Below, one piece after another: positions 17,293 to 41,562 of a DNA stretch of 55,711 nucleotides (the stretch's first letter is position 1; each line of letters opens with the position of its first letter). Source of the stretch: a virus. Lineage: Duplodnaviria > Caudoviricetes. The stretch covers positions 1 through 55,711 of the IMG/VR virus record IMGVR_UViG_3300032024_000424, one strand, 5' to 3'. The translations under genes and the position numbers were made by a program. Under the pieces are notes generated by a model. The model was given only the letters and a program-made list of their open reading frames with translations, did no database searches and was not told the origin of the DNA.

Positions 17293-17343
17293 TCGGGACG
17301 GGTGATCCTCTTCGGCATAGGTAACCAAAGAACACGACGCGTT

Positions 17344-17387
17344 CCCCACGAGGGCTCAGCCGGCCGAGCCGCGCGGCCCTCGTGGGG
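17344..17387 (+). promoter_or_regulatory. Strong hairpin upstream of the exonuclease gene
   Basis: CCCCACGAGGGC ... GCCCTCGTGGGG, a 12-bp perfect inverted repeat. Confidence 0.55.
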
Positions 17388-17416
17388 CGGCGGGAACTAT
17401 CCACACGAAAGGCATC

Positions 17417-18223
17417 ATGGAACTGACCATCGACCTCAATGTCCTCACGGCGGAACCCGCCGACACCTACCACGCCAAGGCCAGCCAGTACCTGTCCAGC
17501 CATCAATTGCTGGACTTCATGGCCTGCCCGTGGCTCTACCGCAAGAAACAGCTCGGGCTGCTGCCCGACACGGACTCGCCGGCGCTTCTGATCGGCCGCG
17601 CTGCGCACAGCCGCATCCTCGAGGGCCGCGACGCCTACGAGGCGCAGTTCGCCCTCGGCGGCCCGATCAATAAGTCCACCGGCAGGCCATTTGGCAAGGA
17701 CACACAAGCCTTCCGGGGGTGGTGCAAGGCGCAGGGCAAGCCGGGCGTCCACCACGACGACCTGGCGCTGATCGAAAATATGGCCAGCGGCGTGGCGATG
17801 AACAGCGAGGCGGTGGACCTGCTGCTCTACGGCCGCTCCGAGGGCGTGGTCCGCACGGACTACTGCGGCGTGCCGAGCCAGGTCCGATTGGACTGGGTGC
17901 ATCCGCACCGGGGCATCATCGATCTGAAAACCGTTTCAAATCTCGACGCGTTTCCCTACGAGGCCAAACGCTGGCGATACCACAACCAGTTGGCGTTTTA
18001 TCAAGCGGTGCTCGCCGAGGTAATTGGGCAATTCGTTCCCGTCTATTTGATCGCCATCGAGAAATCCGAGCCGTATCGCGCCGGCATGTGGCGACTCGGC
18101 GACCAGACGCTGGCGTCAGCACGCCGCGAGAACGAGGCGGCGATCGAACGGCTCAAGCACGCGTGGGCGAAAGATGAGTTCCCCACCGGCTACGAAAGCA
18201 TCAGGACATTGGAGATCGCATAG
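17417..18223 (+). CDS. PD-(D/E)XK exonuclease (DUF3799, RecE/ExoVIII-like)
   Basis: YHA..LSS, GRAAH, SE, RLD, IDLKT, YHNQLAFY. Confidence 0.85.
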   Translation: MELTIDLNVLTAEPADTYHAKASQYLSSHQLLDFMACPWLYRKKQLGLLPDTDSPALLIGRAAHSRILEGRDAYEAQFALGGPINKSTGRPFGKDTQAFRGWCKAQGKPGVHHDDLALIENMASGVAMNSEAVDLLLYGRSEGVVRTDYCGVPSQVRLDWVHPHRGIIDLKTVSNLDAFPYEAKRWRYHNQLAFYQAVLAEVIGQFVPVYLIAIEKSEPYRAGMWRLGDQTLASARRENEAAIERLKHAWAKDEFPTGYESIRTLEIA

Positions 18224-18224
18224 A

Positions 18225-18309
18225 GGCGCGGTGTGGCGAGTCAAGGTATGGCGAGGTCCGGCTTGGTCGGGCTGGGTGGGGCGTGGTTGGGCAAGGCATG
18301 GCATGGTCT
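18225..18309 (+). ncRNA. GGY-NN pentamer array 1 (putative VIPR-type guide RNA)
   Basis: 17 in-register pentamers (16 GGC/GGT, one GTC). NN = GC GT GA AA AT GA CC TT CG TG GG GT TG AA AT AT CT. Confidence 0.85.
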
Positions 18310-18326
18310 TTTTCAAAGGAATCAAA

Positions 18327-18962
18327 ATGATAACGACAGCGACCCCCGGAAAACAAACAGCCGTCGGGCCTGAAGCGACCAACGGCGCGGCTGGCGCCAT
18401 CGAGGCGGGCATTCCCTACATCGTCGATGTATTGATCGAAGGTGTCGCTGACCTGCTGTTCCACCGGTGGAATTGTGAAGCGGTGGCGGAGAAGGCCAAC
18501 GCCGCCAAGGGCAGCGCGGCCAAAAAGCGCGACGACATCGAATCGTACCTATACCGCAACGACGCGGGTGAAATCTGCCTGCCGGGCGAGTACGTGCGGC
18601 AGGCGGTCATCGGCGCGGCCAAATATCGCCAGGACCCGCGCAGCCCCCGCAAGAGCGCCACCGACCTGTTCAAGGCGGCGATTGTGTCGCTGACGCCCCT
18701 GGTGGGTCTGGGGATCGAATCACATCATTATGAACATCGGTGCCGCGTAACCGTCCAGCGCAGCGGCATCACGCGGATCCGGCCCGCGATCAAGAGCGGC
18801 TGGAGGGCGGAGATGTCGTTTCTGGTGAACCTGCCGGAATACATCGCGCCACAGATGCTGCACGAAGTGCTGACACAAGCCGGCCAATTGATCGGTGTGG
18901 GAGACTTCCGCCCGACCTACGGCCGCTTCCAGGTCCGCCGATTTGAAGTACGGCCAACGTAA
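18327..18962 (+). CDS. Cas7/RAMP-like protein 1 (Vipr-like)
   Basis: 211 aa; DLLFH, YRN..EICLPGE, RIRP, C-terminal G-loop AGQLIGVGDFRPTYGRF. AAGGA RBS directly after array 1. Confidence 0.8.
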   Translation: MITTATPGKQTAVGPEATNGAAGAIEAGIPYIVDVLIEGVADLLFHRWNCEAVAEKANAAKGSAAKKRDDIESYLYRNDAGEICLPGEYVRQAVIGAAKYRQDPRSPRKSATDLFKAAIVSLTPLVGLGIESHHYEHRCRVTVQRSGITRIRPAIKSGWRAEMSFLVNLPEYIAPQMLHEVLTQAGQLIGVGDFRPTYGRFQVRRFEVRPT

Positions 18963-18971
18963 CACTTCTCT

Positions 18972-19090
18972 GCGCCCGGGCGGGCCCCTCGTTCTGAAGG
19001 GGTAGGAAGCAGTCGTGCCGCAACGGCATGGATGCCTTATCAGGTTCCCCGGATGGAAGGCGGCTCTTCTTGCTTTGGCCGCCCGGGCGC
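18972..19090 (+). other. Structured intergenic element
   Basis: GCGCCCGGGCGG / CCGCCCGGGCGC closing stem with internal hairpins (TGCCGCAACGGCA; CCCCT...AGGGG). Confidence 0.5.
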
Positions 19091-19159
19091 TTCTTTTAGA
19101 TGTCGAGATAAGCAACAACGGACCGTGACGCGAACCCAAACAACCGAGAGGCACGACGC

Positions 19160-19978
19160 ATGACCCTGATGAACTCACTGATCAAGTCCACCACGCCCGC
19201 GCCGCCTAAGTTGATCGTCTACGGCCAGCCCGGCGTCGGCAAGACGACCTTCGCCGCGTCGGCCGGTGCGATCTTGCTGGACTGCGAGAACGGCGCCGGC
19301 GCTGTGCCCGGCCTGACCCGGACGCCGTACCTCGAGACCTGGCCGCAGATGCGCCAGTGGCTGGTCGAACTCGCCTCCGATCCGCCGCAGGGATTCTCGG
19401 CGCTGGCCATCGACACGATCGACTGGATGGTCCAGCGGATCGTCGAGCACGTGGTGCTGGAACTGGACGGTAAAGCGCGGGGCGACATCACCAACACGCT
19501 GGGCACCGCGCACGGCGGGTACTTCAAGGCCCGAGAGATCGTTCAGAACATCGTCTACCGCGACCTGCTGCCCATGCTCAACGCCGTGGCCGGCCGGGGC
19601 GCGGCCGTCATCCTGCTGGCCCACGCGGCCAACACGAAGCTGACCACGCCCGAGGGCTTCGACCAGCGCCTCGCCTCGCCGGACATCCCGCACTGGATCG
19701 CGCCACCCTTCATCGAATGGGCCGATGGCGTGTTGTACGCCTGTGCCGAAAAGGATCGGCGCGTGCTGAAGACCCAGGGCACCAACGTGATCCTGGCCAA
19801 GAACCGCTACAGCCTGCCCCCGGAAGTGCCGTTGTCCTGGCCCGCGCTGGTAGAGGGCATGAACTTCCCCACGAGCCCGACAAAACCAACCCCGCCCAAA
19901 CCTGAACCTACCCAGAACACCGAACCGCCGGCCGTCGTCGGCTTCGTCGGTCCCAACTCAACCAACCAGGAGAATTGA
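19160..19978 (+). CDS. AAA_24 / Sak4-like ATPase
   Basis: YGQPGVGKTT, IDTIDW, LAH, EWAD, AKNRY. Confidence 0.9.
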   Translation: MTLMNSLIKSTTPAPPKLIVYGQPGVGKTTFAASAGAILLDCENGAGAVPGLTRTPYLETWPQMRQWLVELASDPPQGFSALAIDTIDWMVQRIVEHVVLELDGKARGDITNTLGTAHGGYFKAREIVQNIVYRDLLPMLNAVAGRGAAVILLAHAANTKLTTPEGFDQRLASPDIPHWIAPPFIEWADGVLYACAEKDRRVLKTQGTNVILAKNRYSLPPEVPLSWPALVEGMNFPTSPTKPTPPKPEPTQNTEPPAVVGFVGPNSTNQEN

Positions 19979-19981
19979 TCC

Positions 19982-20443
19982 ATGGCCCATCTAAACGGCT
20001 TTGACGCGACCCAGGTGGAGCCCACAACCCCGTTCGAGCCGCTGCCGGCCGGGAAGTACGTAGCCTGCATCACGGCCAGCGAGATGAAAGCCACCAAGCA
20101 GGGAGACGGCAGCTATTTGCAGCTTGAACTCACCGTGCTCGAGGGCGAGTACAAGGGCCGCAAGGTATGGGACCGGCTGTGTCTGAACCACAGTAATCCC
20201 AAGGCGGTGCAGATCGCGCGGGGTACGTTGTCGGCGCTGTGCAGAAGCATCGGCGTTCTTCAACCTCGAGATTCGGCGGAGTTACACAACGTACCGCTGA
20301 TTGTCTCGGTTAAGTGCAAGAAGCGTAACGACACCCAGGAGATCGCTAACGAAATTGGTGGTTATGAATCGAAGTCCGCTGCGGTGCCGGACGCTTCCCG
20401 CCAGGCACCGGTGAACAATCAGACACCGCCCTGGAAACGCTGA
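19982..20443 (+). CDS. DUF669 phage ssDNA-binding protein
   Basis: FEPLPAGKY, GEYKGRKVWDRL, C-terminal PPWKR. Confidence 0.85.
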   Translation: MAHLNGFDATQVEPTTPFEPLPAGKYVACITASEMKATKQGDGSYLQLELTVLEGEYKGRKVWDRLCLNHSNPKAVQIARGTLSALCRSIGVLQPRDSAELHNVPLIVSVKCKKRNDTQEIANEIGGYESKSAAVPDASRQAPVNNQTPPWKR

Positions 20444-20497
20444 TTATCACCGATAAACAATCGTCGTGACTTGTTACAGCAGCGCGCGTTAAAGACT

Positions 20498-20600
20498 GGC
20501 TCGGCGCGGCATGGCTGGCCCAGGCGCGGTGTGGCGGGGTGTGGCATGGCCAGGCCCGGCAAGGCATGGCGCCCGCGCCGGTGGAAACACGGGCGCGGGC
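20498..20600 (+). ncRNA. GGY-NN pentamer array 2 with 3' GAAA hairpin (putative guide RNA)
   Basis: 15 pentamers (one GCC variant). NN = TC GC AT TG CA GC GT GG GT AT CA CC AA AT GC. Followed by GCCCGCGCCGGTG-GAAA-CACGGGCGCGGGC (20571-20600). Confidence 0.85.
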
Positions 20601-20629
20601 CATTCGGGAACCTCTACAGAGGCATCAGC

Positions 20630-21247
20630 ATGAACAAGCCAACCGCGATCGGCCCGGCAGTCACGAATGGGGCCGCGACCGCAATCGAATCCTCTTTACC
20701 CTACCGCATCGCAGTCACTATCCGCGGCGATTCGGACCTGCTGTTCCACCGCTGGAACTGCGAGGCGGTCGCGGCCAAGGCCAAGGCGGCCAAGGGCTCG
20801 GCGGCCAAGAAGACGGACGACGTCGAGTCCTATGTGTACCGCAACGACGACGGCGAACTGTGCATCCCGGGCGAGTACCTGCGTCAGGCGATCATCGGCA
20901 CCGCTAAGTTCCGCCAGGACCCTCGCTCGGCACGCAAGTCGGCCCAGGACCTGGTCAAGGCAGCTGTGATCAGCCTGACGCCGCTGGCGAGTTTGGGCGT
21001 CCGAGACTGGGACTACGAACACCGCTGCCGGGTCCAGGTGCAGCGCGCCGGTGTGACCCGCGTGCGGCCCGCGATCGCGGCCGGCTGGTCAGCCAGTTTC
21101 GTCTTCCTGGTCAATCTGCCCGAGTACGTGTCGCCGCAGATGCTCCACGGCCTGATCAGTGACGCGGGCAGGCTCGTCGGGATCGCGGACTTTCGTCCGA
21201 CCTACGGGCGATTCCAACTTACATGTTTCGAGATGCTCACCGACTGA
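20630..21247 (+). CDS. Cas7/RAMP-like protein 2 (Vipr-like)
   Basis: 205 aa paralog of 18327-18962; shares DLLFHRWNCEAVA, RQDPRS, YEHRCRV, DFRPTYGRFQ. Confidence 0.8.
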   Translation: MNKPTAIGPAVTNGAATAIESSLPYRIAVTIRGDSDLLFHRWNCEAVAAKAKAAKGSAAKKTDDVESYVYRNDDGELCIPGEYLRQAIIGTAKFRQDPRSARKSAQDLVKAAVISLTPLASLGVRDWDYEHRCRVQVQRAGVTRVRPAIAAGWSASFVFLVNLPEYVSPQMLHGLISDAGRLVGIADFRPTYGRFQLTCFEMLTD

Positions 21248-21248
21248 A

Positions 21249-21290
21249 CCCGACGCTACCACTGACAACACGCCGCCCTGGAAGCGCTGA
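21249..21290 (+). repeat. Orphan duplicate of the DUF669 gene 3' end
   Basis: Encodes PDATTDNTPPWKR*; ACGCCGCCCTGGAAGCGCTGA versus ACACCGCCCTGGAAACGCTGA at 20423-20443. Confidence 0.8.
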
Positions 21291-21329
21291 TCCACTTCCT
21301 CAGCTTCAAACACCACAAAGGACCCACCC

Positions 21330-21566
21330 ATGAGCCTGTTCGTCTCCCTATTCATCCTCTGGATCATCTGCGTGCCGGCGTGCTACCTGCTCCTACGCGA
21401 GGACCACATCGCGGCGACGCAGGGCCGATGGACGCAGATCGACCGCCTCTTCTGGCTGGGCATCTCGCTGGTCTACGGACCGGTCATGCTCATCGCTATA
21501 GTCGGTGTCGCGGTGTTCAACCGGCTCAGCGCTTCGAAGTGGGGCCAGCGCGAGGCCCGCTGGTGA
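21330..21566 (+). CDS. Small membrane protein
   Basis: Two hydrophobic segments; AAGGA RBS. Confidence 0.7.
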   Translation: MSLFVSLFILWIICVPACYLLLREDHIAATQGRWTQIDRLFWLGISLVYGPVMLIAIVGVAVFNRLSASKWGQREARW

Positions 21567-21805
21567 GGCTCGTCCTGCCGTACCCGCCATCCGTGAACCA
21601 CTACTGGCGCAGCTACCGCGGCCGGGTGGTACTGAGCGCCGAAGGCCGAGCTTACCGCGAGGATGTCTGCGACCTCCTGGCCACCGCCCCCGCAATGGGC
21701 GGCAACGGCCCGCGCAAGCCGCCCTCTGGCGGGCGGATCGCGCTGGGCATGGACGCGTTCCCGCCGGATCGGCGGAGGCGTGATACAGACACTGAACTCA
21801 ACTGA
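21563..21805 (+). pseudogene. rusA: Truncated RusA-family resolvase
   Basis: LPYPPSVNHYWR...FPPDRRRRD, then stops where the D-L-D-N motif and C-terminal half are expected. Confidence 0.75.
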
Positions 21806-21808
21806 ACG

Positions 21809-22618
21809 ATGAAGTTGCAACCGACCCTTACTTGCCAGTCGTGCGGAGTGGAGGCCATACGCACCGGGCCCACCCAGCGTTATTGCCGCGTCTGCTCGGA
21901 GTCGCGCGACTTCCTGCGGAAACGCCGCTGGGCGAGGCAACACGTGCCGAACGAGGAACAGCGGCGTCGGACTGGCGCGGGCCGTCGTCGCCGTACAGAG
22001 TTGGCCCGCGAGGCGGGCCGGCTCATCAACCGCCGGCACTGCCGATCGACGGATTGGAATTCCGGGGGCGCCGACAGGCCGCTTCTCTGGCGGGTGTGCG
22101 CCGCCGTGCCGTTCTCTTACGCGGCGTCGAAGAACCACATCTACGCGCTAACGCTCAAGAAAGGGCATGTGGCACTTCGCCGGGAGTCGAGGGCGTTGCG
22201 CGGCCGTATCACCGCGGCACTCCGGGCCGCGATCGGGGGTCGGCGCGTGGCGCACAACAAGGTCTGGATCGATGTGCTCGTTCAGAAGCCGAACCACAAG
22301 GGCGACGCGGTCAACGTGGTCGACCTGGTGTGCGACGCGGTGAAGGACGCGCTGCCCGTGGATGACCGCTGGTTCTGCATCCGCCGGCTGGACTGGGAGG
22401 TCTGCAAGAACGACGGCCAACTGATCGTCGGCGTCGGGCAGGAGTCCGATGCCGACAGCCAGGTGTGTTCCTATTGCGGCCTGATCAGGCCGCTGGCGGA
22501 GTTCAATGTCTCGCGGCATCAACCGCTTGGGGTGGGACGCGAGTGCAAACAATGCCGCCGGGAAGGCCGGCTACTCGCCAAGCAGAAGAACCCGCAGGAC
22601 ACGGGGGTGGCGGCATGA
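21809..22618 (+). CDS. Zn-finger-flanked divergent RusA-like nuclease
   Basis: CQSC/CRVC at the N-terminus; VPFS..SKN, GDAVN...DAVKD..VDD core; CSYC/CKQC at the C-terminus. Confidence 0.6.
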   Translation: MKLQPTLTCQSCGVEAIRTGPTQRYCRVCSESRDFLRKRRWARQHVPNEEQRRRTGAGRRRRTELAREAGRLINRRHCRSTDWNSGGADRPLLWRVCAAVPFSYAASKNHIYALTLKKGHVALRRESRALRGRITAALRAAIGGRRVAHNKVWIDVLVQKPNHKGDAVNVVDLVCDAVKDALPVDDRWFCIRRLDWEVCKNDGQLIVGVGQESDADSQVCSYCGLIRPLAEFNVSRHQPLGVGRECKQCRREGRLLAKQKNPQDTGVAA

Positions 22619-24337
22619 CCACGGGGGTCTCACCCTCCCAATCGATCCAACTCCGCCCCTACCAGGCCGAAGCAGTTAACGCGGTGTACGAGCATCTGCG
22701 CACGCGGGACGACAATCCCTGCGTGGTGATCCCCACCGCGGGCGGAAAAACCCCCGTGATGGCCACCATCTGCCGCGACGTGGTCCAGCAGTGGGACGGC
22801 CGGATCCTCATCCTCGCGCACGTGAAGGAACTGCTCGATCAGGCGGCCGACAAGCTGCACACCATGGCGCCGGACCTCTGGAACCGGATCGGCGTCTACT
22901 CGGCGGGTTTGAAAAGCCGCGACACGGACCACCCCATCATCGTCGCCGGGATCCAGAGCGTGTACCGCCGCGCGTGCGACCTGGGCCGCTTCGACCTGAT
23001 CCTCCTGGATGAATGCCACATGCTTCCGTCCGACGGCGAGGGTATGTACCGCGCGTTCCTAGCAGACGCGAAGGTGGTCAATCCGAACGTCCGCCTGATC
23101 GGCCTGACCGCCACGCCCTACCGCATGACCACGGGCACGATCTGCGGCCCGCCGCCCGATCACCTGCTCAACCACGTCTGCTACGAGGTGGGTGTGCGCG
23201 AGCTGATTGTCCAGGGCTACCTCTGCCCGCTGAAGACCAAGGCCGGCAAACGCAAGGCCGACTTCCAGAACCTGCACCTGCGAGGAGGTGAGTTTATTCC
23301 GGGGGAGGTCGAGGCCCTGATGGACGAGGACGGGCTTGTCAGCTCGGCGTGTTACGAGATCATCGAGCACACCAAGGACCGCCGCTCGGTGCTGATCTTC
23401 GCGGCGGGCGTCAAGCACGCTCAGCACGTGCAGCGCATCCTCAACGGCCTGGGCCACGAGTGCGGCTTCGTCTGCGGCGACACGCTGCCGTTCGACCGAA
23501 CCGAGACGCTCGAGCGCTTCAGATCCGGGGGCCTGAAGTACCTGGTCAATGTCAACGTGCTGACCACCGGCTTCGATGCCCCCGGAATTGATTGTGTGGT
23601 GTTGCTGCGCCCCACGAACTCGCCCGGCCTCTACTACCAGGCGGTTGGTCGTGGATTCCGCCTGCACCCGTCGAAGGAAGACTGCCTCGTTCTGGACTTC
23701 GGCGGCAATATCCTGCGCCACGGGCCGGTTGATGCGCTGCAGATCAAGGACCGCGCCCAAGGTAATGGCGATGCGCCGGCGAAGGAGTGCCCGCAATGCC
23801 AGACGGTGGTCCACGCCGCGTACAGCGTCTGTCCGGAGTGCGGCTTCGAGTTCCCGCCGCCCGATCGCCAGAGGCACGAGCGCGCGCGAGGCGGCCACGG
23901 TGGGCATCCTCAGCGGCGAAGTGACGGAGACGGAGTACGAGGTACAGGACGTCTATTACTCGGCGCACACCAAGCGCGGTGCCCCGGAAGGTCATCCCCG
24001 CACACTGCGGGTGGATTACTGCGTGGCGTTGGGCGATTACCGCAGCGAGTGGGTCTGCGTCGAACACCCGTCCGGCAGCTTCGCGCGGCAGAAGGCGGAT
24101 GCGTGGTGGCGGGCGCGGTCAAGTGAGCCGTGCCCGACCGATGCCGACGCGGCCGCCGAGTTGGCCACTGCCGGGGCGCTGGCTAAGAGCCGGGCGATCA
24201 CCGTGCGCAGCGTGACCGGCGAGAAGTACGACCGCATCGTCGCGCACGAACTCGACGAGGTCCCGCAGGCCGTGGGCGACTTAGCGGGCGGCGAGCCGGA
24301 CTACGTGCACATCCCCGACGAGGAAATCCCGTTCTGA
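22615..24337 (+). pseudogene. SF2 helicase (RadD/YejH-like), frameshifted near 23881-23888
   Basis: LRPYQ, PTAGGKT, DECH, LTATP, TTGFDAP, GRGFR, CPQC/CPEC. The plausible C-terminus ending DEEIPF is in another frame. Confidence 0.8.
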
Positions 24338-26610
24338 TGCTGGCCGACCACGCTGTATCCTACCTGCGGGCCGGCCTCTGCGTCCTGCCCGCCAAGCGCC
24401 TCGAGAAGCGCCCGGCTATCGGCGCGTGGAAGCAATACCAGAAGCGCGCGCCCACGGAGGCCGAGTTGTCGGCGTGGATGGCCAACCCCCGGAATCACCC
24501 CGACGCGGTCTGCATCCTGTGCGGAGCCGTCTCGGGCCACCTCGAGACCCTCGACTTCGACGCCGGCGGCGAACGGTTCGCGGCGTGGTGGGACCGCATC
24601 CCCGCCGCGTTACGCGACAGGCTCGTGGTCGAGACCACCCCTTCCGGCGGCATGCACGTGGTCTACCGATGCGCGGCGCCGGTCTGCGGCAACCTGAAGC
24701 TGGCGCAGCGCAAGGTCGGCAAAGAGGTCGAAACGCTCATCGAGACACGCGGCGAGGGCGGCCTGTTCCTGTGCGCGCCGACCCTGGGTTACATCCTCGC
24801 CCACGGCGACCTGTGCGATCTGCCCGTGCTCACCGAAGCAGAACGCGACGTCCTGCTCCAGGCGGCGTGGGAGCTGAACGAGTACATGCCGGCTGTGGTC
24901 GATGCCCCTGTCCGATCGTCAACTGCCGGGCAACTGCGCGCCGACGGGTGCGCGAGCGCCGACAGGCCGGGTGACGACTTTAACACCCGCGGCGACCCCC
25001 GGGTGGTGCTCGAACAGCACGGCTGGTCCCGCGTGGGTGGCGGCGAGAACGAATACTGGCGGCGCCCGGGCAAGGCCTCGGGTTGGTCGGCGACACTCAA
25101 AGAATGTTCCGGGGGCGGCGTGTTCTATGTGTTCAGCTCGAACGCGGCACCGTTCGAGCCCAACCGGGCCTATTCGCCGTTCTCGGTGTACGCGCTACTC
25201 AACCACGGCGGCGACTTCGAGCAGGCGGCGAGGTCGCTACGCGCGGCCGGCTACGGTAGCGACCTGCGGGGTGATGAACACCCGGGGGTGGACATCTCCG
25301 GCATCCTCGGCCAGGTCGACGGCAACGGTGCTGATCACGCCGGCGACGATGACGGTCAGCGTGACATCGCCGACCCCGGCCCGATCCCCGAATCCCTGTT
25401 CCGTGTGCCCGGCTTCGTGTCGCGGGTGATGGAGTTCACCCTGGCCAACGCGCCCTACCCGAACGTGGGCTTGGCGTTCTGCGGGGCCGTGGCGCTTCAG
25501 TCCTACCTCTGCGGCCGCAAGGTCTGCGACAGCGGTGACCTGCGCCCGAACCTCTACCTGCTGGCGCTGGCCAGCTCGGGCACGGGTAAGGACTTCCCAC
25601 GAAAGGTCAACGCCCGCGTGCTCTTCGAGGTCGGACACGTCGCGGCGCTGGGCGATAAGTTCGCCTCGGGCGAGGGCATCCAGGACGCCCTGGCCCGCAC
25701 CAGCGCCATGCTCTTCCAGAACGACGAGATGGACGGCGTGCTGCGGCAGATCAACCTCGACCGCGAGAACAAGCGCGAGTCGATCCCCAACGTCCTGCTG
25801 ACGCTCTACACCTCCGCCGCCGACGTGTACCCCATCCGCGTCAAGGCCGGGCAGAAGGAAGCGGCGCACATCGACCAGCCGCACCTGACGCTCTTCGGCA
25901 CCGCCACGCCGCAGTACTTCTACGAGTCGCTCAGCCAGCGGATGCTCACCAACGGCTTCTTCGCCCGCCTGATCATCGTGGACATCGGCAAGCGAGGCGA
26001 AGGCCAGACACCCGGAAGTGCCCGGCAACTCCCTGAACCGGTCGTGCAGGCCGCGCGCTGGTGGGCGGAGTTCCAGCCCGGATCGCGCCGTGCGAACCTG
26101 CTGGAGGTTCATCCCGAGCCCAGGGTCGTGCCCGCAACACCCGAGGCGCAGGAGGCGATCAGGGCGCTACAGCGCCAGACCGAGCGGGAGTACGACGCCG
26201 CGCACGAACGCAACGACGAGGTCGCGCGCGTCGCGTGGAGCCGCACGCTGGAGAACGCCAAGAAGCTGGCGCTGATCTACGCCTGCAGCGAGAACCACGA
26301 GGACCCGATCATCGGTCTGCCCGCGGTGGAATGGGCGCGGACGTTCGCTATGCACCAGACGCGCAGGCAGCTGTACCTGGCGGGGAGCTACATGGCCGAG
26401 AACCCGTTCCACGCCGAGTGCCTGAAACTGATGCGGAAGTTAAAAGCAGCGCCCGACCAAAGGATGGACCACAGCAGCCTCTTACAGCGCATGCACACCA
26501 AGGCAACGGATTTCCGCGAACTGATCCAGACGCTGGTGCAGCGCGGCGAGATCGAAGTGATCACAACCCCAAGGGCCGGGAGCCACAAGGTGGAGTATCA
26601 CGTTCTATGA
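24337..26610 (+). CDS. Bifunctional primase-polymerase + DUF3987 helicase-like protein
   Basis: KRP..WK.YQ, LDFD, TPSGGMH, ETRGEGG; ASSGTGKD P-loop. Confidence 0.85.
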   Translation: MLADHAVSYLRAGLCVLPAKRLEKRPAIGAWKQYQKRAPTEAELSAWMANPRNHPDAVCILCGAVSGHLETLDFDAGGERFAAWWDRIPAALRDRLVVETTPSGGMHVVYRCAAPVCGNLKLAQRKVGKEVETLIETRGEGGLFLCAPTLGYILAHGDLCDLPVLTEAERDVLLQAAWELNEYMPAVVDAPVRSSTAGQLRADGCASADRPGDDFNTRGDPRVVLEQHGWSRVGGGENEYWRRPGKASGWSATLKECSGGGVFYVFSSNAAPFEPNRAYSPFSVYALLNHGGDFEQAARSLRAAGYGSDLRGDEHPGVDISGILGQVDGNGADHAGDDDGQRDIADPGPIPESLFRVPGFVSRVMEFTLANAPYPNVGLAFCGAVALQSYLCGRKVCDSGDLRPNLYLLALASSGTGKDFPRKVNARVLFEVGHVAALGDKFASGEGIQDALARTSAMLFQNDEMDGVLRQINLDRENKRESIPNVLLTLYTSAADVYPIRVKAGQKEAAHIDQPHLTLFGTATPQYFYESLSQRMLTNGFFARLIIVDIGKRGEGQTPGSARQLPEPVVQAARWWAEFQPGSRRANLLEVHPEPRVVPATPEAQEAIRALQRQTEREYDAAHERNDEVARVAWSRTLENAKKLALIYACSENHEDPIIGLPAVEWARTFAMHQTRRQLYLAGSYMAENPFHAECLKLMRKLKAAPDQRMDHSSLLQRMHTKATDFRELIQTLVQRGEIEVITTPRAGSHKVEYHVL

Positions 26611-26624
26611 AAGCCCTTCCCACG

Positions 26625-26875
26625 TTTAACCCAGATTTAGCAGGTTTAGCAAATCGGCCGGGCTTGACCGCCCAAAACGCCTCCAGGCTTAGCAGGTTTG
26701 ACACCAGGTTTAACACGGGCCCGCTAAACGTGGGAATCGCCCTAAGTATAGTAATAGTAATAACTCACACTCTCTCTTCTCTCACCTTTAGCACTTTAAC
26801 CCCCACCCCCTCTCATATGGGGTTTTAGGCCCCCGCGCGTTCGCGCGAGGGGTGTGTTAATCGAGACCTGCTAAA
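26625..26875. promoter_or_regulatory. Candidate replication origin
   Basis: TTAGCAGGTTT direct repeats (26637, 26689), inverted ACCTGCTAAA (about 26866) and an AT-rich tract, directly after the primase gene. Confidence 0.5.
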
Positions 26876-26904
26876 GCAGCCTCTACCAACCCGAAAGGAT
26901 TCAC

Positions 26905-27213
26905 ATGACCACGACCCCGTCCTGCGTCGACTGCCGCTACTTCGTACCCGAGGGGCGCCTACACAACGATCTCGATGAAGAAGAAGCCGCACGCCCCGAC
27001 CGCGTGGATGGCGAATGCCGGCGCCACTGCCCGACTCTGGGCCCGATGCTCACTGATCGGCACGGCGACGAGTTCCGCCACTACGGCGAATGGCCAAAGG
27101 TCATGGGCTGCGATAGCTGCGGCGAGTTTCGACTACGCGAACGCGCAGCGCAGCACGCGCCGCAGCCAATCGAAGACGCGTCGTGCGCGTGCGCAGAGCG
27201 CGCCGCTTCGTAA
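26905..27213 (+). CDS. Small Cys-rich hypothetical protein
   Basis: CVDCRYF, GECRRH.P, WP.V..CDSCGEF; AAGGA RBS. Confidence 0.7.
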   Translation: MTTTPSCVDCRYFVPEGRLHNDLDEEEAARPDRVDGECRRHCPTLGPMLTDRHGDEFRHYGEWPKVMGCDSCGEFRLRERAAQHAPQPIEDASCACAERAAS

Positions 27214-27454
27214 CAGGTCGCACACGTTGGCCCGTGTTGCGCCGGGCGCGCGCGGTCGTACACCACTACGACCAACACAGCGCGCCAACACGGGCGAACG
27301 TGGGCGATCGAGTGGGGTGCCAGTATGGCAGGATTTGAATAGGTACTTCCGTGTACCGACTGCCAGAATGGCACGGGAACGCGTCGGTTGTGGAGGAAGA
27401 GTTTGTATGGGACGCGCCGATTTTGGCGCTCCCCTGATGAGGAGCACTAAATGC

Positions 27455-27744
27455 ATGGATGCCAAGGAGATACGGGCAGCATGGCGGCCACGGCGGCTGC
27501 CAGCGGGGCCTGTGTCGCCACTGCGGCGGGCTGTTCTATGTGACCCGCTCCGACGGCCGTGACTGCCGGCCGACGTGTCGCCAGCAGGCGTACCGGACGA
27601 CGACGCCCCGCACCGCACGCCCGCCACTCAACAACACCAAAGGACGGACACAACCGCTGTCTCATCGAGCCCCGCAACATTGACGGCATCCGCTTGCTTG
27701 AGCGGAACCTGCGAATCAACGAGCCAGCGGTCGAAGCCGCCTGA
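27455..27744 (+). pseudogene. Probable frameshifted Zn-finger gene
   Basis: GAGGAG RBS; MDAKEIR, CRHCG..TRSD..C...CRQQAYR and ...AVEAA* lie in different frames. Confidence 0.4.
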
Positions 27745-27787
27745 GGGGCACGTTGGGTTTTGAAGGTCGCCGGGGATCGCATCGGTG

Positions 27788-27895
27788 GGCGTGGCATGGC
27801 ATGGCGCGGCGGGGCCAGGCACGGCCGGGCTGGGTAAGGCGCGGCGCGGCATGGACAGGTCCGGCGGGGGTAACGCCCCGGCGGGCCGTTGGACC
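27788..27895 (+). ncRNA. GGY-NN pentamer array 3 (orphan putative guide RNA) with 3' hairpin
   Basis: 13 perfect GGY pentamers. NN = GT AT AT GC GG CA AC CG TG AA GC GC AT, then GGACA and a GGTCCGGCGG...CCGTTGGACC stem. Confidence 0.8.
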
Positions 27896-27922
27896 GGATC
27901 ATTCAAACATGGAGGTTTGCTT

Positions 27923-30151
27923 ATGCAGGTGAGCTTGTGGCCGATTGAGCGTGTGAAGCCGTATGAGAACAACCCCCGCGTTGTGGAGAAGGCGGTGGAG
28001 CCGGTGGCCCGATCCATCCAGGAGTTCGGCTGGCGTCAGCCGCTGGTGGTGGACGAAGAGGGCGTGCTGATCGTGGGCCACGTTCGGCTGCTGGCCGCCC
28101 GGAAGCTCGGCCTGAAGGAGGTGCCGGTCCACGTCGCCACCGGCCTTTCGCCGGAGAGGGTCCGCGCCTACAGGCTTGCCGACAACAAGACCGGCGAGCT
28201 GGCTAAGTGGGACATGGATATCCTGCCCATCGAGCTGAACGAGCTGCGTGAGGGTGGATTTGATATGGGGGTGCTGGCGTTTGATGACGAAGAACTGGCG
28301 AAGCTGATCAACGCGGCGGCGGGTGTCACGGAGGGGCTGACCGACCCTGACGAGGTGCCCGAGCCGCCCGACGACCCGATCACGCAGCGCGGGGACATCT
28401 GGGTGCTCGGCGACCACCGCCTCATGTGCGGCGACTCGTCGAAGGCCGAGGACCTGGACCGTCTGCTGGACGGCGCGAACATCGACCTGTTTGCGAGTGA
28501 CCCGCCCTATAACGTCCGTGTCGAACCTCGCAGCAACAACGCGATCGCGGCGGGCAACTCCTCGTTCAAGGCGTCGGGCAAGAAGGCTGGTTCCGGGGGT
28601 GTTTCCGGGGGTGTTTCCGGGGGCGGCGGCCACCATCAGAAGATGGACCTGGCCCGCCACCCGGGCAAGGCCAAGGGCACGCACAAGCAGATGCGGGCCA
28701 AGGACCGGCCGCTCGCCAACGACTTCGTCCCCCCGGAAGTTTTCGACGAGATGCTGTTAGCTTGGTTCGGCAACGCGTCGCGCGTGCTCAAGCCCGGCGG
28801 CTCGTTCTACATCTGGGGCGGCTACGCCAACCTCGGCAACTACCCCGGCCCGCTGAAGGCGGCGGGCCTGTACTTCAGCCAGGGGATCGTCTGGGACAAA
28901 CAGCACCCGGTGCTGACGCGCAAGGACTTCATGGGCGCGTTCGAGCTGTGCCAACCGCCCGACACGAAGGTCATGACACCCGCGGGAGAATCGCGACTCA
29001 GCGCACTTTGTGATGACGATGAGGTAGTGACATTCGCCAAGAGTTCCGGCGCAATCATCGGTCACCGGCGTGGTCCGAAGGTTCGGGTCGGCACGCGTCA
29101 TTACGGCGGCCCGCTCTACGGCGTCACGGCTGAGGCAAAGACCACTTGGTGCACCGATGGTCACCAGTTCAGCGTCAGGCTGGCGCCTCATGTTCGCAAT
29201 GTCTGGTGCGTGTATCTCATGCGGCGTGGGCGGTGGTGGCGTGTTGGCAAATCAAAGCTCCTGACCACGTGGGGGCTTGGGGTGAAGCAGCGCCTGGAGA
29301 AGGAAGGGGGTGAGGAGGCGTGGATTCTCAGCACCCATATGTCAAACACCGAGGCGGCCTGCGCGGAGCAGATCGTTTCGGCCCGCTACGGAATCCCCAC
29401 GACGTATTGGACCGAAACGAAAAGTTCCAAGCGCACGCACTCGCAGATCGCTCGCATCTACGAGCGGATTGATCCGATGGCGCTGCACCGAAGCGCGCTG
29501 TGGGCGCTATCCGACTATCACCGCCGAATCGAATATCCGTTCATTGAGCGGCAAAACACCCGGCCCAAATATGGCCGTCGCGTTTCCTTCGTCACCCGTG
29601 CCTGCAACCTGCTGCCGGGCGTCATGGAATTGCCCGTTCCCACTGGGGGCCCACACTATCGGTGGACGCCGATTCGCCACGTCGATGTGCAGGATTACAG
29701 CGGGCAGGTCTACTCACTCGATGTGGCAAAGCACCACCACTATATCGCCGACGGCATGGTCACGCACAACTGCTTCTACGGCTGGAAGGAGGGCGCGGGC
29801 CACCACTTCTACGGCCCGAACAACGCGACCGACCTCTGGCACGTCAAGAAGGTGAACCCGCAGAGCATGGTCCACCTGACCGAGAAGCCGGTCGAGCTGG
29901 CGGTGCGCGCGATCCAGTACTCGTCCAAGCCCGGAGAAAACGTGCTGGACCTCTTCGGTGGCAGCGGCTCGACGCTGATCGGCTGCGAGCAGACGGACCG
30001 GCGTGCGTTCCTGATGGAGATCGACCCGGCGTATTGTGACGTTATTGTCCAGAGGTGGGAGCAGTTCACGGGGAAGAAGGCGGAGCGGACCGAGGCCGGC
30101 ACACCAGGCGATGCGGCGGCCGAGCCCGTGGGTGCGGAGGCTTCCTCATGA
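27923..30151 (+). CDS. ParB-like domain + N6/N4 DNA methyltransferase, intein-containing
   Basis: PYENNPR, GHxR, ADNKT; DPPY; HLTEKPVEL; DLFGGSGST. GGAGG RBS before ATG 27923. Confidence 0.92.
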   Translation: MQVSLWPIERVKPYENNPRVVEKAVEPVARSIQEFGWRQPLVVDEEGVLIVGHVRLLAARKLGLKEVPVHVATGLSPERVRAYRLADNKTGELAKWDMDILPIELNELREGGFDMGVLAFDDEELAKLINAAAGVTEGLTDPDEVPEPPDDPITQRGDIWVLGDHRLMCGDSSKAEDLDRLLDGANIDLFASDPPYNVRVEPRSNNAIAAGNSSFKASGKKAGSGGVSGGVSGGGGHHQKMDLARHPGKAKGTHKQMRAKDRPLANDFVPPEVFDEMLLAWFGNASRVLKPGGSFYIWGGYANLGNYPGPLKAAGLYFSQGIVWDKQHPVLTRKDFMGAFELCQPPDTKVMTPAGESRLSALCDDDEVVTFAKSSGAIIGHRRGPKVRVGTRHYGGPLYGVTAEAKTTWCTDGHQFSVRLAPHVRNVWCVYLMRRGRWWRVGKSKLLTTWGLGVKQRLEKEGGEEAWILSTHMSNTEAACAEQIVSARYGIPTTYWTETKSSKRTHSQIARIYERIDPMALHRSALWALSDYHRRIEYPFIERQNTRPKYGRRVSFVTRACNLLPGVMELPVPTGGPHYRWTPIRHVDVQDYSGQVYSLDVAKHHHYIADGMVTHNCFYGWKEGAGHHFYGPNNATDLWHVKKVNPQSMVHLTEKPVELAVRAIQYSSKPGENVLDLFGGSGSTLIGCEQTDRRAFLMEIDPAYCDVIVQRWEQFTGKKAERTEAGTPGDAAAEPVGAEASS
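28949..29770 (+). mobile_element. Intein (274 aa) with GIY-YIG-like insert
   Basis: Starts CQPPDTKV; TDGH block B; VYSLDV..HHYIADGMVTHN followed by extein Cys. Removal restores FEL-CFYGWKEG. Confidence 0.9.
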
Positions 30152-30392: not shown

Positions 30393-30763
30393 TCAGTATG
30401 GCGCTTCGGCCAGGTACATGAACTCGATCATGGCGTCTTCGTAGAGCGCGCCGGAGGCGGGGTAGGTGCGTCGCATGCGGACCTCGACGCAGCCGCGTTC
30501 CTTCATGAAGGCCAGCGCGACGTTGACCTGCGTGAAGGGCGCATCCATCGCCTGGGCGAGTTCCTCGAGCGTCGTGCCGCCCGCCGCGTGCTCCTCGATG
30601 GTGAATGCGACCTCGCGGAAGATGTGGCGGGTGCAGCGGTGGAGGTAACCTCTGTCCGGGGCGTCGGGGAACGAAACCTTCATCTCAAGGTGGTCGTCCA
30701 CACCACGTCGAAGGTCACGACTCTATTCCGGGGGCGGTTCCGGGGGCGGGGGTGGGTTGCCAT
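30393..30763 (-). pseudogene. Small HTH-like protein, likely 2-nt frameshift near 30702
   Basis: ATG 30763 (after AAGGAG) reads MATHP..VTFDVV; the continuation DDHLEMKV is out of frame. Confidence 0.5.
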
Positions 30764-31231: not shown

Positions 31232-32275
31232 TCACGCTCCTTTCCGGGTCTGGAACCGGCCGCGCTCGGCTTTCTGGAACCGGGCGTCTTTGCCCTTCTT
31301 CTGCAGCTCGCGGAGGATCGCGCTGTAGAGTGTCGCGTGCGGCGTCTTGCCACCGCTGCGGGGCGACCAGAGGTTCTGCTTGGTGATCTTCTCGATCATC
31401 TCCTTAGTGTTCATGGGTTCCTTGGCATTGCCGAGGACCTGCACGGCCGCGTCGATGAGGCTCATGGGGCGGGGCTTGGCGCTGGTCTTCTTATCGCCGC
31501 TCGTGTGGGTCATCCACTTGCCGAGGCTGATGCCGATGGCGGACGACGTCTTGCCGGTCGCGGCCTTGACCGCCTGGCGGACCGCGTCGGCGCCGGTGTG
31601 CAGCAGCGCGGCACCATCGCTGCGGTAGCCGTCACCGTCGAGTGCCGTGGTCGCCTTGACCTTCCACACGGCGGGCGAGCCGTTGTGCTCGCGGAAGTAG
31701 AGTTCATAGATGACGCCGTTACGGCCGAAGGCGATGTGCCCGTGGCTGACCGGCAGGTCGGCGATGGCCTTGGCCAGAGCGTCGCGGTCGGCCCGCGTCT
31801 CGGCGGACACCCGGCCCTTGGCGCCTGGCGTCTTCGGCTTTGTCGAGGTGGCCATCGCCCGTTCACCCCCGGATGTGCCCCCGGATATGCCCCCGGATGT
31901 GGCGGTCATGCCGTCGCTGCTCTTGGCCCGCTCGCCCCCGGAACCGCGGACCCGTGCGTTATTCCGGGGGTCTTGATCGGCATCCGTCTGGGCCCGCAGC
32001 CCGGCAGAGCGGGCTTTGCGCTCGGCGGCGGTGAGCTTCTTCTTGATCGGCGGCTTCGCGCCGGGCTTCGCGTTGCCGGCGTCCGCGTCCGTGACGGGAG
32101 CGCTCACGCGGCCGCGCAGGCGCTGGGCGCTCTTGATGCGGATTTGCTTGTTTGTCACCAGGTTGGTGGCGTCCCATCCCCCTCGCGGGTTCACCTTGTC
32201 GATCCGCACGGGCACGACCTTGTCGCTGACCTTGGCGGTGTACGTTTCGCCGATCTTGATCTCGTCTTTCTTCAC
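31232..32275 (-). CDS. HARE-HTH (HB1/ASXL-type winged helix) protein
   Basis: SLIDAAVQVL..PM..KEMIE..GKTPHATLYSAILRE..RF.K.ERG.F. Confidence 0.8.
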   Translation of the reverse strand: MKKDEIKIGETYTAKVSDKVVPVRIDKVNPRGGWDATNLVTNKQIRIKSAQRLRGRVSAPVTDADAGNAKPGAKPPIKKKLTAAERKARSAGLRAQTDADQDPRNNARVRGSGGERAKSSDGMTATSGGISGGTSGGERAMATSTKPKTPGAKGRVSAETRADRDALAKAIADLPVSHGHIAFGRNGVIYELYFREHNGSPAVWKVKATTALDGDGYRSDGAALLHTGADAVRQAVKAATGKTSSAIGISLGKWMTHTSGDKKTSAKPRPMSLIDAAVQVLGNAKEPMNTKEMIEKITKQNLWSPRSGGKTPHATLYSAILRELQKKGKDARFQKAERGRFQTRKGA

Positions 32276-36874: not shown

Positions 36875-38382
36875 TGTGGCCGTTCCGCAGGAGGTCAGGG
36901 AAGACCACCCCCGGCAAGCGGTCCCTTCCGGTGACGTTGCGGGCCCGTTACGACGCGGCGCAGACCACCGCCGACAACGCCCGGCACTGGGCAATGGCCG
37001 ATGCCCTGTCGGCCGACGCCGCGGCCGCGCCGGGTGTCCGCAAGAAGCTGCGCGAACGTGCCCGCTATGAGGTGGCCAACAACAGCTACGCCAAGGGCAT
37101 CGTGCTGACACTCGCCAACGACTGCATCGGCACCGGCCCGCGCCTGCAACTGCTCAGCGACGACGCCGAGACGAACAACCGTGTCGAGAAGGCGTTTGCC
37201 CAGTGGGCCAGGGCGGTCAACCTGGCCGGGAAGCTGCGGGCCATGCGGATGGCCAAGGCGACCGACGGCGAGGTGTTCGCTGTGCTCACCGATAACCCGC
37301 ATCTTGACTCGCCCGTCCAGCTCGACGTGCAGTTAGTCGAGGCCGACCGCGTGGCGTTCCCCTGGTTCGCGGGCGCGCCGCTACATCCAGATGTCAGCGT
37401 ACTTCCCGGGGTCGACGGCGTGATCCTTGATCGCTTCGGCAACCCGCTAACCTACACCGTCCTGCGTCAGCACCCGGGCGACCCCCCCGGAAGTTCCCCC
37501 GGAAGTTCCCCCGGAAGGTGGACAGGCGGAGACTACGACGAGGTGCCCGCTGACGCCGTGATCCACTGGTTCCGCGCGGACCGGCCGGGCCAGCACCGGG
37601 GTGTCCCCGAGATCACGCCGGCGCTGCCGCTCTTCGCCCAGTTGCGCCGCTACACGCTGGCGGTGATCGCCGCCGCCGAAACCGCCGCGGACTTCGCGGC
37701 CGTGCTCTTCACCGACGCCCCGGCCAACGGTGAAGCGCAAGCGCTTGAGCCCATGGACGTGGTGGAACTCGAGAAACGCATGGCCACGGTGCTGCCCGAC
37801 GGTTGGCGGCTCGGGCAGATCGAGGCGCAGCAGCCGGCGACCGGGTACGCGGAGTTCAAGCACGAGATCCTCAACGAGATCGCACGGTGCCTGAACCTGC
37901 CGTTCAACGTCGCCGCCGGCAACAGCGCCGGCTACAACTACGCCTCCGGCCGGCTGGACCACCAGACCTACTTTAAGTCCATCCGCGTCGAGCAGGCGCA
38001 CCTCGCCGAGACGGTGCTCGACCCCATACTGACCGCCTGGCTCGATGAGGCGGTGCTGATCAACGAGTTCGCGTCGCTGCGCAACGCGGGCAGACCGGCA
38101 CATCAGTGGTTCTTCGATGGCACGGAGCACGTCGACCCGGCCAAGGAGGCCAACGCCCAGGCGACGCGGTTAGCCAGCAACACCACCACGCTCGCCGCCG
38201 AGTTCGCCCGGCAGGGCAAGGACTGGGAAGTTGAATTGCGCCAGCGTGCCAAGGAGCAGACGCTGATGAAAGAGTTGGGCTTGTCAATGGCGCCCGCGCA
38301 GGACCCAACCGCACCCACCGAAGATGAAGTCGAAGAGGAGACCGACACGGATGCCCTCCCAAGCGCACCAAACAACCAATGA
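36874..38382 (+). CDS. Lambda-family portal protein
   Basis: RYDAA, LRERAR, DGEVF, RPGQHRGVP, NYASGRLD, VDPAKE. Confidence 0.92.
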   Translation: MWPFRRRSGKTTPGKRSLPVTLRARYDAAQTTADNARHWAMADALSADAAAAPGVRKKLRERARYEVANNSYAKGIVLTLANDCIGTGPRLQLLSDDAETNNRVEKAFAQWARAVNLAGKLRAMRMAKATDGEVFAVLTDNPHLDSPVQLDVQLVEADRVAFPWFAGAPLHPDVSVLPGVDGVILDRFGNPLTYTVLRQHPGDPPGSSPGSSPGRWTGGDYDEVPADAVIHWFRADRPGQHRGVPEITPALPLFAQLRRYTLAVIAAAETAADFAAVLFTDAPANGEAQALEPMDVVELEKRMATVLPDGWRLGQIEAQQPATGYAEFKHEILNEIARCLNLPFNVAAGNSAGYNYASGRLDHQTYFKSIRVEQAHLAETVLDPILTAWLDEAVLINEFASLRNAGRPAHQWFFDGTEHVDPAKEANAQATRLASNTTTLAAEFARQGKDWEVELRQRAKEQTLMKELGLSMAPAQDPTAPTEDEVEEETDTDALPSAPNNQ

Positions 38383-41142: not shown

Positions 41143-41562
41143 TTGGGAGTGTCGGTCTTGCCCCCCGGAAATGATCTTCTCCGCCAGGGCTCGCAGTGGC
41201 TGGAGCAGATGCGCACGGCGTACTGTTCGAGCCCCGTCATCTACCGCCGGGCCGGTCAGCCCGACGCGCAGGTCAACGCGACGTTCGGCAAGACCGACTA
41301 CGAGGCCGCCGACGAGTCGGGCTTTACGACGGGCGGGCACGTCTGGGACTTTTTGATCCTGGCCGACGAACTATGGCTCGCGTTCGGCGAGCCGGAAGCG
41401 GGTGACACGATCGTGGCCGAGGGCAGGCGGCATGAGGTGCTGGCGCTGGGCAATGACGTGAAGGGGTGGCGGTGGAGCGATCCGTACCGGCGGACCTACC
41501 GCATCCACACCAAGGACATCGGACCCCCGGACCCCCCGGAACCCCCGGACCCCCCGGAATAG
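41143..41562 (+). CDS. Head-tail joining protein
   Basis: Position; DFLI, EPEAGD.I, WRWSD..R.HTK. Start uncertain. Confidence 0.7.
   Translation: MGVSVLPPGNDLLRQGSQWLEQMRTAYCSSPVIYRRAGQPDAQVNATFGKTDYEAADESGFTTGGHVWDFLILADELWLAFGEPEAGDTIVAEGRRHEVLALGNDVKGWRWSDPYRRTYRIHTKDIGPPDPPEPPDPPE

Follow-up and report, generated by a model that had tools for sequence, protein, structure and literature searches.

The 55,711 nt viral sequence IMGVR_UViG_3300032024_000424 (Duplodnaviria; Caudoviricetes), referred to here as the window, is recorded as a provirus of 55.7 kb, with a CheckV completeness of about 80%. It carries three arrays of GGYNN pentamers (A1, A2 and A3), which lie next to genes for a DUF3799 exonuclease, a DUF669 single-strand-binding-like protein and a ParB-type DNA methyltransferase; A1 and A2 also adjoin small genes for Cas7-like proteins, vipr1 and vipr2 (Table 1). 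The same RNA code is used by VIPR systems, which were first described in 2026 and whose targets in nature have been established chiefly for phages of E. coli and Pseudomonas. In VIPR, Vipr protomers coat a guide RNA (vrRNA) and present each NN dinucleotide, and the resulting complex recognises double-stranded DNA, leaving out each third base, and represses transcription from either strand (10.64898/2026.04.26.720920, 10.64898/2026.04.26.720927, 10.64898/2026.10.15.759431). Published vrRNAs consist of 9–16 tandem GGY/NN pentamers next to vipr (10.64898/2026.04.26.720920), and the reports describe alignment of the skipped base with the wobble position, silencing of competitors, and no self match at 80% or above (10.64898/2026.04.26.720920, 10.64898/2026.10.15.759431). 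An earlier note on this DNA, made from the sequence alone, had pointed to the three arrays and the two adjoining Cas7-like genes, and had cited the VIPR code with its gapped recognition. The former are confirmed by the scan, homology and fold described below, and the latter is published with the same code.

Both strands of the full window were scanned for GGY recurring every 5 nt in six or more of eight units, and exactly three runs were found, all on the plus strand (18220–18319, 20493–20582 and 27778–27872). Tandem Repeats Finder picks up the same arrays at periods of 10, 10 and 20. By direct reading, A1 (18225–18309), A2 (20498–20572) and A3 (27788–27867) have 17, 15 and 16 units, a few of them degenerate (GTCAA, GCCCA, GGACA), and the units that match targets number 13, 13 and 12. 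The sequence GGCATGG is common to all three, immediately 3′ of the target-matching part. A1 begins 2 bp past the stop codon of the DUF3799 gene and ends 18 bp before vipr1, while A2 is located between the DUF669 gene and vipr2, 58 bp upstream of the latter. A3 is a solo vrRNA, 56 bp upstream of the ParB-methyltransferase gene, with no vipr adjoining it and at a distance of 6.5 kb from the vipr genes. An ATCGCAT motif closely precedes the first unit in A1 (18214–18224) and A3 (27776–27787), although not in A2, and might serve as a signal for initiation or processing. A search of the whole window against Rfam at gathering thresholds gave no matches, and a scan of 17300–28300 for sigma-70 promoter and terminator consensus sequences found nothing at the arrays. 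Among public sequencing runs, those listed for 17900–21300 were DNA runs, two of which may be the source and the others of which covered small shares of it; no RNA run was listed.

The products of vipr1 and vipr2 are paralogues (68% identical) and both belong to phrog_4652, a family without functional annotation. No Pfam family was matched by either at E-values up to 0.01. The vipr1 product alone, however, retrieves the Vipr protein of phage SUSP1 (PDB 36pp_D) by phmmer at E = 4.7e-5, and with a profile of 22 homologues this was the only PDB match (E = 2.3e-9, residues 69–197 aligned to 59–188). An AlphaFold2 model (pLDDT 81) was matched by Foldseek to type VII Cas7/Csm3 proteins at E of about 2e-6 and a TM-score of about 0.5. 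The profile match and the Cas7-type fold identify the open reading frames beside A1 and A2 as Vipr proteins and the arrays as vrRNA-like.

When each NN is written as NNx, with one target base in three passed over as in the published VIPR rule, each guide spells codon positions 1 and 2 of a conserved motif in the version of its neighbour gene that is carried by vipr-free siblings. Two sets of relatives were compared: 65 IMG/VR loci with DUF3799 homologues (55–75% identity), most of which also encode Sak4, DUF669 and RusA, and 69 loci encoding relatives of the ParB-methyltransferase. The best A1 site was the homologous codon run in 65/65 DUF3799 loci, where the relatives read A[VI]EK.EPFRCGVW, and scores of 25, 24, 23 and 22 of 26 were seen in 31, 22, 6 and 6 of them. 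For A2, 13 units gave 26, 25 and 24 of 26 in 4, 5 and 24 of 63 vipr-free loci, and the first 12 units gave 24/24 in 18 of 65. A3 (12 units) reached 24/24 in 8 and 23/24 in 20 of its 69 loci; as an off-target control, it peaked at 17/24 on 65 loci without the ParB gene. Guides with shuffled unit order were run against a 1.4 Mb pool, and none (0/200 for each guide) scored above 21/26, 20/26 and 19/24 for A1, A2 and A3, respectively.

Perfect targets were located by an exact IUPAC scan of 596 Gb of sequence, representing one genome per prokaryotic species. This gave 2, 5 and 32 matches to A1, A2 and A3, compared to a chance expectation of about 0.0003–0.004. The A1 targets (26/26) lie on two contigs of Planctomycetota metagenome-assembled genomes, those of A2 on five genome contigs, and those of A3 on 32 genome stretches. 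Every exact match encodes AVEKIEPFRCGVW, SAICHAVGVMQPK or VIIAGHTRWKAA, always within the homologous gene, and most are in Phycisphaerae or other Planctomycetota; the host of the provirus is most likely a member of the Phycisphaerae. Perfect A1 and A3 sites occur together on one 23 kb contig, while L218 combines an A2 site at 26/26 with an A1 site at 24/26, and L252 an A1 site at 26/26 with an A2 site at 23/26. Sites that are at most one base off comprise 21, 13 and 45 distinct target DNAs for the three guides, with one to four different bases at the skipped positions. Given these distinct DNAs and varied third positions, the matches reflect codon positions 1 and 2 and not copied DNA.

The copies of the three genes in the window fit the guides less well. 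The resident sites are all in frame with codon positions 1 and 2 of the neighbouring gene, and match at 8/13, 7/13 and 7/12 dinucleotides (starting at 18053, 20231 and 28064), or 73%, 65% and 67% of the informative bases; the counts in the earlier note (19/26, 17/26 and 16/24 nt) were exact on recount. They differ from the guides at 5–6 of 12–13 units, and matched stretches are no longer than two units. None of the three arrays has a self target at 80% or above in the window. When the full arrays were run in NNx form over both strands of the entire window (best scores 20/34, 19/30 and 22/32), the neighbour sites ranked first, joint second and third of about 110,500 positions. The probability of such a match within 300 bp is 0.04, 0.08 and 0.03 by nucleotide count, and order-shuffled guides equalled the resident match within that distance in 0, 6 and 4 of 200 trials. 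The partial resident matches are explained by homology to the perfect targets elsewhere.

The loci carrying the targets lack vipr. No vipr homologue was found by tblastn in the fetched target stretches of either set (0/65 and 0/69), or in the whole records of relatives (0/5, four of them at least 96% complete), while the control search found both genes in the record of the window itself. The gap between the DUF669 and RusA genes, which in the window is 937 bp and occupied by A2 and vipr2, is estimated at about −210 to +140 bp in the vipr-free relatives (54/55 loci). No vipr-free relative whose sequence covers the site, at an identity of 55% or more, scored as low as the resident copy (0/65, 0/59 and 0/48); five apparent exceptions were records that end before the site. 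The resident allele is the worst-matching member of its family in each case. Several expectations of the earlier note are upheld by these comparisons, namely that the guides are directed at conserved motifs in DUF3799, DUF669 and ParB-methyltransferase genes of cassette-free relatives, that they are blind to wobble changes, that homologues match better than the resident gene, that shuffled arrays do not approach the matches in relatives, and that Planctomycetota is the phylum concerned.

Most of the substitutions in the resident sites are conservative (V>I, F>Y, V>M, I>L, A>S, M>L, T>V), and a change from RCG to RAG replaces a cysteine that is invariant among the aligned vipr-free relatives. 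At the A1 site, RCG is changed to RAG, RAA or RTG in 3/7 loci with vipr and in 0/65 without (Fisher p = 0.0006), and residues found only in the resident allele are in significant excess at the DUF3799 site (3/13 vs 11/255, p = 0.024). The earlier note had proposed that the resident allele escapes its guide by recoding. The lowest rank of each resident allele in its family agrees with this, but a directional excess of changes is significant only for DUF3799; that the resident alleles may have moved away from the guides is best supported by rank rather than by the residue-excess test.

Table 1. Arrays, vipr genes and neighbouring genes of the window, with the sites in resident genes that partially match the guides.
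Feature	Position	Strand	Evidence or remarks
DUF3799 / PD-(D/E)XK exonuclease gene, resident allele	17417–18223	+	Pfam PF12684, E = 7e-26; phrog_412, exonuclease VIII
Resident near-cognate site of guide A1, AIEKSEPYRAGMW, spanning the ExK motif	18053–18091	+	19/26 nt, 8/13 units
vrRNA A1, guide units 1–13 (GGYNN), spelling A V E K I/M E P F R C G V W	18225–18289	+	
A1 3′ part: GGCAA GGCAT GGCAT GGTCT, then a T-run; no match to targets	18290–18314	+	No stable fold, z 0.29
vipr1, Cas7-like RAMP protein	18327–18962	+	phrog_4652; Vipr homology; AlphaFold2 fold
Sak4-like AAA_24 annealing protein, recombination-module context	19160–19978	+	
DUF669 single-strand-binding-like gene, resident allele	19982–20443	+	Pfam PF05037, E = 1e-17; phrog_6015
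Resident near-cognate site of guide A2, SALCRSIGVLQPR	20231–20269	+	17/26 nt, 7/13 units
vrRNA A2, guide units 1–13, spelling SAICHAVGVMQPK	20498–20562	+	
A2 3′ part: GGCAT GG, then a G+C-rich hairpin	20563–20600	+	Minimum free energy −30.1, z −2.0
vipr2, paralogue of vipr1, 68% identity	20630–21247	+	At least 80 homologous loci
vrRNA A3 (solo), guide units 1–12, spelling VIIAGHTRWKAA	27788–27847	+	
A3 3′ part: GGCAT GG, then a hairpin	27848–27890	+	Minimum free energy −32.3, z −2.15
ParB-N6/N4 DNA methyltransferase gene with intein insertion (probable), resident allele	27923–30151	+	
Resident near-cognate site of guide A3, VLIVGHVRLLAA	28064–28099	+	16/24 nt, 7/12 units

The ParB-methyltransferase of the window contains an insertion of about 273 aa (residues about 344–616), which is missing from 12 Planctomycetes-chromosome homologues, where the equivalents of residues 1–343 join those of 617–733 directly. 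The insertion matches Pfam Intein_splicing below the curated cut-off (E = 1.3e-5, 25.5 bits vs 35.8) and is probably an intein. A complete Planctomycetes chromosome (CP087563.1) carries 13 ParB-methyltransferase genes, all of which contain a perfect A3 target. Twelve of them were compared (L227, L231, L232, L234, L235, L237, L239, L241, L246–L248, L251); they share only 74–90% DNA identity, and so represent a large family of diverged elements that are predicted targets of a single guide. A separate repeat of the window, the 9-mer CCCCCGGAA, occurs in 40 copies on both strands compared to about 1 expected, with more than four copies in 0/100 shuffles. Examples are at 28591–28623, 30726–30746, 37484–37516 and 41533–41559. 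Some copies form 12 nt tandem arrays with a variable tail (also at 31866–31901 and 45740–45779), and some are in coding regions.

If a guide beside a mismatched copy of its target gene is a regular arrangement, then it might be expected at other vipr loci. With vipr2 as the query at least 80 vipr loci were listed, and arrays are carried by 67 of the 80 listed; targets were called at 11 units with at least 20/22, or at 12 units with at least 22/24. One locus, L206, has the gene order of the window, with arrays after DUF3799, between DUF669 and vipr, and just upstream of a helicase gene (649–713, 2098–2152 and 3354–3438), but its guides are unlike those of the window. Its first guide matches the DxK motif of a rival DUF3799 gene at 24/26 and its own adjoining copy at 19/26, and the second matches a rival DUF669 gene at 21/22 and its own copy at 16/22. 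A 20/20 match of the third guide falls on the helicase motif VNVLTTGFDA; the corresponding site in the helicase of L206 itself was not located. As the window and L206 carry different guides in the same intergenic slots, guides have been exchanged in place. The window helicase encodes VNVLTTGFDA (23551–23580) and matches the guide core of the L206 array at 3354–3438 at 20/20, while the window DUF669 (20069–20098) matches the array at 2098–2152 at 18/20, so that the provirus is itself a predicted target of a sibling VIPR. In the other direction, L206 scores just 19/26 and 20/26 against A1 and A2.

Similar pairings were seen elsewhere. In L135, a guide against rusA adjoins the rusA gene of that locus. 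When the window and the other loci are taken together, all nine arrays with a target in the pool (9/9) adjoin a resident homologue of that target, and at the 12-unit threshold the outside arrays with matches come only from L135, L160 and L206. Partial self-matches of at least 18/24 near arrays in the other loci were within 400 bp in 8/15 instances, or about four near and four far independent cases, a proximity that is only suggestive. The guide-beside-target layout generalises at least within this Vipr clade.

In two loci (L159:2825–2919 and L160:951–1035), guides placed directly 3′ of vipr correspond to the final codons and the stop codon of a rival vipr gene. The L160 guide matches the rival vipr at 21/22 (22/24 over 12 units) and the end of its own vipr, 5 bp away, at 19/24, and the L159 guide matches the rival vipr at 20/22. 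These guides fit the published vipr-targeting vrRNAs. Very long GGYNN tracts, of up to 71 consecutive units and many per locus, are found upstream and downstream of vipr in L157, L159, L161, L169 and L187, and no targets for them were present in the module-restricted pool.

The window very probably carries a VIPR system with two Vipr paralogues and three guides, residing in a Planctomycetota provirus, in which the guides are aimed at the versions of the adjoining genes found in VIPR-free siblings, the resident copies are mismatched, and the layout has been selected as linkage. By analogy with the experiments on the SUSP1 and P. fulva systems, the guides would be transcribed and then coated by Vipr filaments. 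The complexes would bind the rival exonuclease, single-strand-binding-like and ParB-methyltransferase genes as double-stranded DNA; all three guides share the polarity of the coding strand, which makes pairing with mRNA impossible and fits DNA targeting. Transcription of the co-directional early replication and recombination operon of a sibling phage or prophage would then be blocked, while the resident alleles would match too poorly to be bound. The adjacency is best seen as a selected, tight linkage of weapon and immunity that may move as one unit. Recombination between siblings, presumably frequent in exactly this replication and recombination module, could not then join a guide to a sensitive allele, as such a recombinant would silence itself.

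Several observations weigh against this interpretation. No perfect A1 target was found among the 65 IMG/VR loci, where the best score was 25/26. The cassettes have no vap gene, an accessory that typically stands beside vipr in published loci and serves for typing: no open reading frame separates vipr1 from Sak4, or vipr2 from the RusA gene. For this reason the VIPR type is not assignable. The excess of resident-only residues is not significant in DUF669 (1/12 vs 12/140, p = 0.67) or in ParB (1/12 vs 7/201, p = 0.38), and neither is an even spacing of the resident mismatches (P = 0.07, 0.23 and 0.16). The pool behind the 9/9 adjacency was built from homologues of the window module, so that only targets in those genes were visible, and of the arrays outside the window just 6/198 had a pool target at 11 units with at least 20/22. 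That the resident alleles are immune is presumed from the 80% cut-off applied in published surveys, from which the mismatch tolerance of these particular Viprs may differ. An open reading frame at 21809–22618, downstream of vipr2, was considered as a vap candidate and rejected, since it has homologues in 2/65 vipr-free loci and 0 among the 80 vipr-positive loci listed.

A simpler explanation for the matches would be chance, with G+C-rich coding DNA and G-rich dinucleotides giving rise to spurious in-frame pairings. Viewed in isolation, each resident match is only moderately improbable (P 0.03–0.08), but 0/200 shuffles come near the matches in relatives, all exact genomic matches to the 24–26 base patterns (2, 5 and 32) fall within the homologous gene, and the off-target control tops out at 17/24. 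Chance or composition is ruled out by these three results, and its probability is put at next to nothing. The resident matches could instead be functional, with the guides tuning the resident exonuclease, single-strand-binding-like and ParB-methyltransferase genes by partial pairing. The neighbour gene is the best or near-best site of each guide in the window, and guide and gene are on the same strand, probably in one transcription unit. Such autoregulation is nevertheless very unlikely. The matches in relatives are perfect or one off, and the resident allele is the lowest of its family. The resident sites match 54–62% of units, which is under the 80% threshold for natural targets, and perturbed NN pairing abolished silencing in the published experiments (10.64898/2026.04.26.720920). 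At the resident sites, matched units never exceed two in a row.

The remaining alternatives accept the targets in siblings but account differently for the adjacency. It could be a by-product of guide-making, if a templated process wrote GGYNN units at the gene being copied, for instance while the phage recombined with a sibling infecting the same cell. The window and L206 do have different guides, directed at different motifs of the same gene, in the same intergenic slots. No mechanism is known that turns NNx into GGYNN, however, no acquisition genes were seen in the Pfam and PHROG annotation of the window, and turnover in place is equally expected under selection on linked cassettes, which leaves this explanation with little probability. 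True homing, or a gene drive with DNA breakage, would have a guide-directed nuclease cut the sibling gene, with repair copying in the cassette and the immune allele. Free-standing homing endonuclease genes are indeed laid out in this way, with the weapon next to a resistant allele and directed at a conserved catalytic motif of the rival allele. RusA and a weak HNH or endonuclease VII-like open reading frame (21809–22618, E 2e-5 to 3e-4) are found downstream of vipr2, and some VIPR types carry nuclease vap genes (10.64898/2026.04.26.720920). On the other hand, no nuclease domain was detected in the Viprs, given the lack of any Pfam family at E up to 0.01; RusA is present in 55/65 vipr-free relatives, and the reading frame at 21809, from its distribution among relatives, is no conserved partner. 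With neither a nuclease nor vap in the cassettes, strict homing is left unsupported, rather than disproved, and is considered improbable. The earlier note had likened the arrangement to the logic of homing endonucleases; a mismatched resident allele set against matching cassette-free alleles agrees with that comparison, while the cassettes have no nuclease that would drive copying by breakage.

Selected linkage of guide and immune allele, the interpretation preferred here, could be taken a step further. Guide and immune allele might together form a selfish, nuclease-free drive module that spreads gene by gene through the phage population, a proposal that is regarded as speculative and probably wrong in this strong form, though with a better prospect than the alternatives above. 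VIPR would shut down the sibling operon at a run of catalytic-motif codons that is not cheaply changed, and only genomes or recombinants with the linked recoded allele and guide would replicate. Possible signs of such an arms race are the swapped guides at the slots of the window and L206, the convergent RCG-to-RAG change in vipr-positive lineages, and the standing of the window as a perfect predicted target of the L206 helicase guide.

The organising rule that emerges is that a guide gene adjoins the resident, recoded copy of the gene attacked in siblings. It would ease the prediction of targets, since the neighbouring gene could be inspected and then its homologues. The system also provides natural pairs of self and non-self sequences, with targets matching at 12–13 of 13 units and presumed immune alleles that are off at 5–6 interspersed units. 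The contested phage functions include an exonuclease (ExK and DxK motifs), a single-strand-binding-like protein, a ParB protein (GHxR motif) and a helicase motif. More broadly, it suggests that RNA-guided silencing can give rise to population dynamics like those of homing endonucleases or poison-antidote elements without a nuclease.

As in the VIPR systems of SUSP1 and P. fulva, the window has a small Cas7-like Vipr, GGY/NN vrRNAs, a code that skips 1 nt at the wobble position, and a phage or provirus location (10.64898/2026.04.26.720920, 10.64898/2026.04.26.720927), and competitors are matched while its own contig is not at 80% or above (10.64898/2026.04.26.720920). The testable defining features of VIPR are present: a Vipr protein, GGYNN vrRNAs, in-frame targets with a 1 nt skip, and no self target at 80% or above. 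Earlier publications already cover the code with its wobble logic, the attack on competitors, and a self match below the non-self match. Compared to the systems described in those reports, the window differs in having no vap gene, two vipr paralogues each with one upstream vrRNA together with a solo vrRNA, and targets that are the siblings' homologues of the adjoining gene, the resident copy being kept and recoded; its host phylum is Planctomycetota. The 3′ parts of the arrays appear as simple hairpins or a T-run; a pseudoknot tail is described for the SUSP1 clade. The closest precedents are the solo vrRNAs of VIPR-null SUSP1-like phages, which also target homologous loci of relatives with self matches lower than non-self, avoiding autoimmunity (10.64898/2026.10.15.759431), and, with the vrRNA-targeting vrRNAs, place the guide where the rival has its target gene and target active-site codons from which escape is costly (10.64898/2026.10.15.759431). 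The SUSP1-like phages as described there have either lost the resident target (vipr-vap1) or aim at another vrRNA (10.64898/2026.10.15.759431), whereas in the window the resident gene is intact, 5–6 units off, and three genes are involved in one genome. A keyword search of the VIPR literature, with supplementary target maps outside its scope, turned up no case of a guide adjoining a resident copy of its target gene that is intact yet recoded.

Free-standing homing endonuclease genes are a second point of comparison. They place a weapon beside a resistant allele, target a conserved motif of the rival allele, and keep weapon and immunity linked. Judged from the sequences, the window shares with this class a mismatched resident allele and cassette-free alleles that carry the recognition site, but no site-specific nuclease was found in the cassettes (no Pfam family in the Viprs and no further open reading frame), and the agent is a predicted RNA-guided binder with no detected nuclease. 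Poison-antidote, or toxin-antidote, selfish elements likewise link a harmful agent tightly to insensitivity. In the provirus the counterpart of the antidote would be a recoded target site, and the harm would fall on co-resident relatives and not on element-free progeny.

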